A DNA stretch of 64,000 bases. Source: Candidatus Sulfotelmatobacter sp. (GTDB lineage: Bacteria > Acidobacteriota > Terriglobia > Terriglobales > Acidobacteriaceae). Below are positions 39,463 to 41,999 of the stretch, piece by piece. Where the stretch lies: positions 4,716-68,715 of the forward strand of contig DAIUEW010000020.1 of the NCBI GenBank assembly GCA_036844925.1. Reading direction: 5' to 3'. A program made the translations under genes and the position numbers. The notes below the pieces were generated by a model, which was not told where the DNA came from, did not search any database, and saw only the letters and a list, made by a program, of their open reading frames with translations. Every line of letters starts with the position of its first letter. Within the stretch, counting starts at the first letter, position 1.

Positions 39463-39545
39463 TTCGGGTGCCCGAGCCATTCCCGCGCTAGATGGCGATT
39501 ATGGCCTACCCAGACGCCGCCCTAGATGCGACAATAGAGTTTCCC

Positions 39546-41999
39546 ATGACCAGTTCCCTGACTTCAGCTTTTTCTGCGGAGACCCTCCGGCAGCATGGCC
39601 TCAGTTCCGACGAATACGAAAAGATCAAGAGACTTCTCGAAGGACGCGAGCCCACGCTCACCGAACTCGGCATCTTCAGCGTGATGTGGAGCGAGCACTG
39701 TTCCTACAAATCGTCACGCGTACATTTGAAGCGGCTGCCCACGCGCAGCAAGCGAGTGCTCCAGGGACCGGGGGAAAACGCTGGAATTATCGACATCGGT
39801 GACGGCTGGGCATGCGCGTTCAAGATTGAGTCGCATAACCATCCGTCATTCATCGAACCGTTTCAGGGGGCGACGACCGGCGTGGGCGGCATTCTGCGCG
39901 ATATTTTTACCATGGGCGCGCGACCGGTTGCGGTGATGGACTCGCTGAGGTTCGGACCGATCACCGCATCGAAGGGGATCTCTCAGAGCGAACTGCATAG
40001 GAATCACTCCATTCTCGAAGGCGTGGTCAGCGGCGTGGCTTCCTACGGCAATTGTTTCGGTGTGCCGAACCTGGGCGGGGAAACCAAGTTCGAACCGTGC
40101 TACTCCGGTAATCCGCTGGTGAACGCTTTCGCCATGGGGTTGGTGCGCAAGGACGAAATTTTTTACGCGCGTGCCGCCGGGGAGGGCAATCCGGTTATTT
40201 ATGTCGGCGCTAAGACGGGGCGCGACGGCATCCACGGCGCGACCATGGCCAGCGAAGAATTCAGCGAAGCTTCGGAAGCGAAGCGTCCGAATGTGCAGGT
40301 GGGCGATCCTTTTCTGGAAAAGTTGTTGCTCGAGGCCTGTCTGGAAGCGATGCAGACGGGAGCGATTGTCGGCATCCAGGACATGGGTGCGGCGGGCCTG
40401 ACGTGCTCCACTTGCGAGATGGGCGGCCGCGGCGGAGTGGGGATTGAGATTGAACTAGATCGCGTTCCGCAGCGCGAGACTGGCATGACTCCTTACGAAA
40501 TTATGCTGAGCGAGTCGCAGGAGCGCATGTTGCTGGTGGCGCAGAAGGGCCGCGAGCAAGAGGTGTATCGCGTTTTTCAAAAGTGGGGACTCGATGCGGT
40601 CGAGGTTGGCAGGGTCACCACCGACAATAAATTGCGCGTGTTGCAGCACGGCGAGGTTGTCGCCGAGATTCCAAATCAGGCGCTCACTGATGATGCGCCA
40701 GTGTATAAGCGTCCGCTGGCGCGCTGGGAGCCTCCCGTGGCCAGGGAGATGCCGGAGAGTGTGCGGCTTGGCGGCGCGTCTCAGGGGCTAAAGCCCACGT
40801 CTTCTGCGAATTCTAACGGCGCGGCTGAAGCCGCGCCCTTTCAAAACGTGCCCTTGCAGAACGTGCCCTTCCAAAGCATGGCGGTAGCTGAGAGTCCCCG
40901 TCGCGGCAGTGATTTCACGCAAGACCTGAAACTGCTCCTTGCCAGCCCGAACATTTGCGGGAAGCGCTGGGTGTGGCAGCAATACGATCACATGGTGCAG
41001 ACCAACACGGTGGAACCGCCGGGTGCGGGCGATGCGGGAGTGATTCGCATTAAGAATTCCGATGCCAGGGCTTCCGAGCGCGGACTGGCAATGGCGCTCG
41101 ATGGCAATGGGCGCTGGTGTTATCTCGACCCGCGCCTGGGCGCGATGCATGCGGTTGCCGAAGCTGCGCGTAAAGTTGCATGTTCGGGGGCGACGCCGGT
41201 GGGTGCGACCAATTGCCTGAACTTCGGCAATCCGGAGAAGCCGCACATCATGTGGCAGTTTTCGCAGACCATCGATGGCATCACGAAAGCCTGCGAGGAG
41301 TTGGAGATTCCCATCACCGGCGGCAATGTGAGTTTCTATAACGAGACGCTGGGCGAGGCCATCTATCCGACGCCAGTGCTGGGCGTGGTGGGGATTCTCG
41401 ATGACGTGCACAAGAGTGCGAAGATGCATTTTGCCTCGATCGGACGCACGATCGTGCTATTGCGCGCCGGCGCCAGGGCCGATATCACGGATGTACATAG
41501 TGAGTTCGGGTCATCGGAGTACGCGAAAGAAGTTCTGGGCGAGCTGTGGGGATATCCTCCAGAGCTCGATTTGGAGAAAGAAGCTTCGTTGCAGAAGGCC
41601 GTTGTCGAACTAATCCAGCAGGGGCTGGTGGATTCCGTGCATGATTGCTCGGATGGCGGCTTGGCGGTCGCGCTGGCGGAGAAGGCGTTTGCCAGAGGCA
41701 TCGGAGTTCGGGTGAATCTGGCGTCGGACGGGCTTCCCGCGGAGTTTGTATTGTTTGGGGAGGATGCGAGCCGGATCGTTGTCAGTTGCGACCCTGGTCA
41801 GTTGGCGCGAATCCAAGGGGTAGCGGGAAAATACGACATCGCTGCCGATGCGCTGGGAGAAACGATTCCGGAGCGGCTGGAAATTTCGGTGGATGAAACC
41901 GTGGTTGTATCCGCCGAAGTCTCGGAATTAAGTGACGTGTTCGAGGGAGCGCTCGAATCGGCGTTGCGGACTGATCCGGAGTTGGTGGCGGCAGATTGA
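39546..41999 (+). CDS. purL: Phosphoribosylformylglycinamidine synthase subunit II
   Basis: [53 protein letters not shown]. Start at MTSSL chosen by family N-terminal length; an alternative ATG lies at 39492. Contains a ~100-bp REP-derived in-frame insert. Confidence 0.9.
40779..40877 (+). repeat. Family-A REP-like element embedded in frame in purL
   Basis: tctcaggggctaaagccc...ggcgcggc-tgaa-gccgcgcc...aacgtgcccttgcagaacgtgcccttcc. Head, hairpin and gtgcccttcc tail match the intergenic copies at 5366, 7459 and 30763. Confidence 0.8.

Follow-up and report, generated by a model that had tools for sequence, protein, structure and literature searches.

In-frame palindromic repeats and the purL locus

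Classical repetitive extragenic palindromes (REPs) are single palindromes of 20–40 bp that lie mostly outside genes, and REP or REPIN elements accompanied by REP-associated tyrosine transposases (RAYTs), the so-called REPtrons, were reportedly described by Nunvar in 2010 and by Bertels and Rainey in 2011. According to the accounts in PMC10969869 and PMC3733652, Rickettsia palindromic elements (RPEs) are repeats that stand in frame in many housekeeping genes, are translated, and are thought to be compatible with the protein fold (Ogata et al. 2000, Science 290:347). [quoted passage not shown] The review PMC10969869 also refers to intragenic enterobacterial repetitive intergenic consensus (ERIC), BOX, and miniature inverted-repeat transposable element (MITE) sequences, small mobile repeats whose open frames make in-frame fusions (Delihas 2007). 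Here, we examined a 64,000-nt stretch from Candidatus Sulfotelmatobacter sp. (the window; assembly GCA_036844925.1, contig DAIUEW010000020.1, positions 4,716–68,715), in which purL, the gene for phosphoribosylformylglycinamidine (FGAM) synthase subunit II, contains a repeat-derived insert. Very probably, a REP-type repeat landed in frame in the connector of PurL as selfish or neutral DNA, and the resulting loop was tolerated. This kind of insertion is already known from RPEs, from intragenic REPs (PMC3733652), and from ERIC/BOX elements, and the present case works alike; neither purL nor this genus is reported in the survey of PMC3733652.

Like the RPEs, the purL element is a small palindromic repeat that stands in frame in several unrelated genes (purL, pheT, rlmN, tilS, and the genes for an FAD-oxidase/Fe-S protein and a metallo-β-lactamase (MBL) hydrolase). 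However, whereas RPE-1 is approximately 150 bp long and without a known transposase, the present unit is approximately 70 nt long, has two different hairpins, and is linked to RAYTs. The RPE host has a reduced intracellular genome, whereas the genome considered here is that of a large-genome, free-living soil bacterium of another phylum; the two are likened by mode of action only, and sequence homology is unlikely because of the difference in phylum. In contrast to the intragenic REPs of PMC3733652, the purL element has no GTAG or CGTC tag and is a bipartite unit of head plus hairpin. It shares with the REPtrons high-copy hairpins, a Y1/HUH gene with inverted flanks, subfamilies that each have their own RAYT, strand polarity, and inverted doublets, the last found here in the PurL of some congeners. 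Unlike classical REPs, it has approximately 6% of its strict copies in frame in genes, and the ORFs of its RAYTs continue into the flanking element. The terminal inverted repeats and target-site duplications that characterise MITEs were not seen for the purL element: its head and tail differ, and the alignment of filled and empty purL sites contains no duplicated flank. The MITE reading was therefore rejected.

The insert and its empty sites

Measured from anchor to anchor (PVYKRP to QYDH), the PurL linker is 98 aa long in the window and 55 aa long in insert-free congeners. The short linker was found in 26 of the first 30 genomes compared, including all 8 of the sister family, and the other 4 had a repeat-derived insert. 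Among 80 species-representative loci, mostly named Candidatus Sulfotelmatobacter metagenome-assembled genomes (MAGs), 66 had a linker of 54–55 aa (..REMPExIKLGGxxDFT..) and 11 (approximately 14%) carried repeat-derived inserts. Database PurLs gave a similar distribution, with a 55-aa linker in 86 of the 120 best matches (all at least 79% identical) and repeat-derived inserts in approximately 25. The short form reads ..REMPExIKLGGxxDFTxNLKQLL.. and is 55 aa within the genus, and the DNA alignment separates filled from empty sites cleanly, with the insertion between LGG(x) and (x)DFT. Because the short linker prevails across orthologues, the insert is derived and is not the ancestral linker. By the same comparison, it is no private feature of the window genome but belongs to a genus-wide polymorphism at this PurL loop. 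The first-pass annotation, made from the sequence of the window, had proposed a repeat inserted into purL, a proposal to be refuted by a homologous linker of equal length and sequence in orthologues without family-A repeats. What was found in most orthologues was the short linker rather than a homologous one of the same length, an outcome that favours the proposal. The features of the locus, in window coordinates, are as follows.

39492–41999, + strand: purL ORF (FGAM synthase subunit II), 835 aa from the first ATG in the ORF listing
40776–40910, + strand: insert region, residues 429–473 between LGG (426–428) and DFT (474–476), from alignments with 29 orthologues
40779–40848, + strand: core REP-type element, comprising head, 21-nt spacer, second hairpin, and tail (78–81% identity to genome copies)
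40780–40796, + strand: head motif CTCAGGGGCTAAAGCCC, with the 4-bp hairpin GGGC-TAAA-GCCC (8 window copies)
40818–40837, + strand: second hairpin GGCGCGGC-TGAA-GCCGCGCC, an exact palindrome of 8 G:C pairs, paired in the minimum-free-energy and centroid folds
40835–40875, + strand: 15-nt tandem tail array (GCCCTTYCAAAACGT-like), coding for 12 residues (Tandem Repeats Finder: period 15, 2.7 copies)
40876–40907, + strand: 3′ part of the insert, coding for 11 residues, found in the loci L031 and L039, with no counterpart at empty sites

Insert-free congeners have 2 residues between LGG and DFT, so the window has a net gain of 43 aa. At the nucleotide level, it has approximately 129 nt, or 43 codons, more than the empty site (approximately 40779–40907, from protein and DNA alignments with 29 orthologues), and the whole insert is in the purL frame and would be translated as a loop of approximately 43 residues, ASQGLKP...PRRGS. 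The first-pass annotation had described a stretch at 40779–40877 with head, hairpin, and tail, translated in the purL frame as a 32-residue peptide; re-reading the sequence at those coordinates bore this out, and the claim that the repeat is an in-frame insert also stood, whereas its size of approximately 100 bp had to be revised, since the extra DNA is approximately 129 nt and not 99 nt. The tail CGTGCCCTTCC is present twice, at 40847 and 40862. The 3′ part of the insert is common to the window and to its two closest relatives, the genomes G142 and G076; it could represent a second element that has decayed.

The purL gene is single-copy in the genome, and its reading frame is intact. Its product contains the Pfam domains FGAR-AT_linker (PF18072), AIRS (PF00586, twice), and AIRS_C (PF02769, twice), and matched the PDB structures 3VIU (E = 3.7e−193) and 1VK3 (E = 2.5e−111); with its duplicated AIRS/AIRS_C, its N-terminal FGAR-AT linker, and its likeness to solved PurLs, the protein is a small-type PurL. 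In the HMMER alignment with Thermus thermophilus PurL (3VIU), query residues 33–418 correspond to residues 6–378 and query residues 472–798 to residues 388–697, and in Thermotoga maritima PurL (1VK3), the first aligned block stops at 353 and the second begins at 378. Because the alignment blocks break at this point, the insert is placed in a connector of approximately 10 residues between the two AIRS/AIRS_C halves, so that the structural mapping recommended at the outset also located the insert, by alignment to 3VIU. It directly precedes the 14-residue helix that starts the second half, and the loop is probably surface-exposed and disordered. The homologues all start at the equivalent of M19, with MT(T/S)S.. 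(MTSSLTS, at 39546 in the window), and the true start of purL is likely to be this codon, which gives a protein of 817 aa; the first ATG of the ORF, with the extension 39492–39545, is probably not the start. A 213-aa minus-strand ORF at 40788–41429 overlaps conserved purL codons and was taken as spurious.

The repeat family, its RAYT genes, and copies in other genes

In the genome (6.19 Mb, 56.6% GC, a draft of 160 contigs), the head was found 116 times with at most 1 mismatch. In each unit, approximately 20 variable bases separate the head from a second GC-rich hairpin, to which a 9-nt tail is attached, and the conservation among copies extends from 1 nt 5′ of CTCAG to approximately 9 nt 3′ of hairpin 2. 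Subtypes were distinguished by their tails: GCGCTGCGCCACCCAA (47 copies), GCGCCGCTCTTCCAC (42), GCCGCGCCCTTTCAA (33), and GTCGTGCCCTTCCC (32), the last corresponding to family A of the first-pass annotation. The purL core (40779–40848) was 78–81% identical to copies of the CCCTTTCAA-tailed subtype (e.g., C17:61766, C6:103274, C7:90324, and C121:1788, where C numbers denote contigs of this genome), and only 67–71% identical to the three family-A copies to which it had originally been compared. Shuffled copies gave a mean identity of 49% and a maximum of 58%. Because 67–81% exceeds this maximum, the identity of the purL copy with the repeat family is real; the proposed membership in the repeat family was thus upheld, whereas family A was displaced as its closest relative. 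Within the window, the head CTCAGGGGCTAAAGCCC has 8 matches with at most 2 mismatches, all on the + strand, whereas 0 were expected and none occurred in 100 shuffles. Strand polarity was also observed across the genome: the locally G-rich strand carries 92 of the 116 heads (Fisher p = 3e−10), and neighbours are co-oriented in 37 cases against 16. All 8 window copies (5386–63335) are on the + strand, and the purL copy agrees with this polarity. No Rfam family matched the element at the gathering threshold, and a relaxed threshold gave only chance-level hits. The family is a high-copy, hairpin-forming, mostly intergenic short repeat, as REPs are, and its bipartite unit of approximately 70 nt exceeds the classical REP length.

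Of 14 Y1_Tnp (PF01797) genes in the genome, three stand between inverted copies of the repeat whose heads are proximal (C121:1340–1990, C37:523–1185, and C14:36718–37227), and at each of these loci the left copy is on the − strand and the right copy on the + strand; the spans of gene plus flanks are C121:1271–1990, C37:500–1185, and C14:36688–37319. Scored with NCBIfam NF047646, the model for REP-associated tyrosine transposases (cut-off 80 bits), the three genes reached 107.6, 102.3, and 109.9 bits; with the IS200 model, they reached 24–27 bits, under its cut-off of 55. The motif HEFVVxPDHxHxL is visible in the transposases. The flanking subtype differs at each RAYT gene, and the tail of the C121 pair is of the purL type, its stem containing a compensatory change. 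The RAYT ORFs extend into the element on their right, in the purL frame at C121 (..PQGLKP..) and C37 (..PQRLKP..) and in another frame at C14 (..TGAKA..). Because inverted copies flank three genes above the NF047646 cut-off, the repeat is, as judged from its genomic setting, a genuine element of the REP type. As IS608 shows, elements of the IS200/IS605 type transpose through single strands, and the strand polarity of the repeat fits such a mode. The presence/absence polymorphism and the strand polarity are indirect signs that RAYTs may mobilise the repeat as single-stranded DNA. Together with the empty sites in orthologues and the intact single-copy purL, the RAYT link supports the original proposal that a mobile repeat entered an essential enzyme and kept its frame.

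Copies in other genes were searched among 101 strict two-hairpin units genome-wide, 13 of which fell within long spanning ORFs. A copy was accepted as in-gene only when Pfam domains were found on both sides of the element, and 6 units (approximately 6% of the strict units) were accepted on this basis, in purL, pheT, rlmN, tilS, and the genes for an FAD-oxidase/Fe-S/CCG protein and an MBL-fold hydrolase. The copy in pheT precedes the B3_4 domain, that in rlmN lies between the RlmN_N and radical-SAM domains, two copies split the PP-loop domain of tilS, and the copies in the FAD-oxidase/Fe-S/CCG and MBL-fold hydrolase genes are reversed. Congeners differ in the tilS insert, which is absent or shorter in G003 and G022. 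The in-gene copies other than that of purL lie outside the window, at C6:103274, C8:15568, C13:82554, C17:61766, and C24:55586. Spanning ORFs on C11, C14 (two), C24 (at 26688), and C38 were left out of the in-gene count, since domains flanking the element on both sides were either not found or not searched for.

Variation, constraint, and the number of insertions

The window groups with G142 and G076 in a clade (100% support in the SH-like approximate likelihood ratio test, SH-aLRT) that shares the same insert, and their inserts differ mainly in the number of 15-nt units. The unit coding for QNVPL occurs once in G142, twice in the window, four times in G076, and three times in the metagenome protein P0002; judged from these sequences, the variation is a slippage-type length polymorphism. 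Across all carriers, the inserts range from +14 to +57 aa, and so length polymorphism, which the first-pass annotation had suggested looking for among strains or metagenome reads, is present between species, both within this clade and beyond it. Some carriers are without the flanking LGG/DFT codons (..VRQGLKP..AEAVPFHNS..), and in G097, G162, P0019, P0027, P0048, P0051, and P0088, an inverted doublet is present, in which a reverse family-A copy (REGHDFSRAVK..ASAAEG) is followed by a forward copy. The PurL connectors of L002 (G007), L045 (G148), and P0038 contain an unrelated dispersed repeat (..IPTSRAKSAREMGHP..), either alone or beside the two-hairpin element. In three congeners, L040 (G059), L045 (G148), and L048 (G133), the linker lengths are not divisible by 3, and purL is split into two ORFs at the insertion site; these out-of-frame linkers may be sequencing errors in repeats or a genuinely split purL.

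Within the clade of the window, G142, and G076, dN was 0.07–0.11 in the insert and 0.026–0.031 in the rest of purL, and dN/dS was 0.37–0.99 and 0.15–0.21, respectively. The insert is under relaxed constraint. Because dN and dN/dS are raised and the insert is missing in most congeners, it looks more like a passenger that is tolerated than like a module that has been recruited. Under co-option, by contrast, PurL would be served by the loop of the peptide or by hairpins in the mRNA, as a pause between the halves, in mRNA stability, or as a PurLQS interaction surface. The insert has indeed been kept in frame in the three species of the window clade, the 8-bp GC hairpin that had been proposed for the mRNA does form in the predicted fold, and a site exactly between the pseudo-symmetric halves would suit a folding pause. 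However, co-option is difficult to reconcile with a 3–4-fold higher dN and a dN/dS near 1, with the variable length and orientation of the inserts and their absence from most congeners, and with the comparable inserts in unrelated genes; moreover, the predicted fold of the 121-nt region shows no unusual stability (z = −1.55), and no terminator-like site was found at the purL insert. We therefore consider co-option improbable. An error of assembly or binning, by which a repeat was wrongly joined into purL, deserves attention in a MAG that is a draft of 160 contigs, as repeats are typical sites of misassembly. The insert, however, is in frame, and it recurs in the independent assemblies G142 and G076 (on contigs of 1.5 and 1.96 Mb) and in the independent metagenome proteins P0002–P0004. 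Because the same insert is found in G142 and G076, such an artefact can be regarded as practically excluded.

The explanation that we prefer is that a two-hairpin repeat of approximately 70 nt, of the kind that flanks RAYT (HUH/Y1) genes, inserted stop-free and in frame in purL, at the short connector joining the two pseudo-symmetric halves of PurL. The element, its slippage-prone 15-nt tail array, and approximately 30 more bases would then be translated as the loop of approximately 43 residues, which would be tolerated because the connector is structurally permissive. Selection would act as a filter, with only in-frame, stop-free copies in permissive loops surviving in an essential gene, and the insert would be selfish or neutral DNA rather than a new functional module. 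Several points weigh against this explanation. The conserved 5′ end of the repeat is (C)CTCAGSGGCT, and the purL copy has neither the GTAG nor the CGTC tag by which the classical REP superfamilies are marked; neither a target-site duplication nor a defined target motif was seen in the alignment of filled and empty purL sites or in the alignment of copies, and no match was identified for the last approximately 30 nt of the insert. Its dN/dS values derive from only 39–44 codons. The placement in the PurL structure is by sequence alignment to solved structures, and an AlphaFold2 model, built from 59 close homologues that were all at least 84% identical and thus too shallow a set, had a mean predicted local distance difference test score (pLDDT) of 40.5 and was discarded. 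Finally, that RAYTs mobilise the repeat, that the insert is translated, and that the loop is disordered and neutral for the function of the enzyme are steps that we infer.

The number of insertion events was considered on a PurL tree built without the linker, which is star-like. The distribution of carriers on this tree requires 11 state changes, at least 4 of which are forced by well-supported branches, and a single carrier clade was rejected by the approximately unbiased (AU) test (ΔlnL 254, p = 5e−44), although the tree is star-like and recombination is possible. The junctions also vary by insert class, lying after LGGx, after LGG, or directly after VR, or beginning with the reverse family-A copy. 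Because of the forced changes, the AU rejection, and the differing junctions, we favour several gains, or gains combined with seamless losses or recombination, as the probable history of these sequences. A single ancient insertion in an ancestor shared by part of the genus, passed on by vertical descent and then repeatedly lost by precise excision or replaced through recombination, would mean that the loop is not a recurrent target. In agreement with such a history, the junction L-G/S-x followed by CCTCAGGGG is nearly alike in most carriers, the 21-nt spacer, with a common TCTTCTGCG-like variant, is constant in length in most of them, and hairpin-stem intermediates with G.T and A.C mismatches (L041, L038, and L039) indicate decay in place. 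Enzymes of the IS200/IS605 type excise seamlessly, so that precise loss is plausible. However, the scatter of the carriers over the tree, the AU test, and the differing junctions all speak against one ancient insertion, as does the empty site of uniform length in approximately 85% of species; we regard this history as possible but doubtful.

The favoured series of gains leaves room for a more specific idea, which we put forward only tentatively, that the PurL connector is a recurrent landing site that RAYT-mobilised repeats from several subfamilies, in both orientations and as inverted doublets, have entered, and perhaps seamlessly left, within the same interval of approximately 15 nt at least 4 times in one genus. 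Recurrent landing, if true, would imply sequence- or structure-directed targeting by RAYTs and would offer a natural series in which the target choice of RAYTs and the tolerance of proteins for inserted loops could be studied. The idea of RAYT targeting fits the resemblance of the empty site CTCGGCGG to the head CTCAGCGG. This empty-site sequence, CTCGGCGG(A), lies just 5′ of the insertion point (40764–40775 in the window, compared with L004, L005, and L015), and its likeness to the head could be due to chance or could be a cue for targeting or microhomology.

With the preferred explanation, the clean comparison of filled and empty sites over approximately 150 species illustrates how REP-type selfish DNA invades an essential gene of central metabolism in free-living soil Acidobacteria, and how the inserted loop then diversifies through slippage, decay, and further insertions. 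It extends the RPE paradigm to a large-genome, free-living lineage and ties it to RAYT transposases. Such inserts inflate protein lengths, break alignments, and can yield apparent frameshifts or split genes in MAGs; they also mark permissive loop positions in PurL that are usable in protein engineering.

A second variable loop of PurL follows RFGPI (residues approximately 158–166; 39960–39990 in the window). In many relatives, P0002, P0004, P0051, and P0111 among them, this loop holds other repeat-derived peptides of up to approximately 65 aa (..VGTAASAVLPG..AAGQPRAAVPTQ..), and in the window it is empty.

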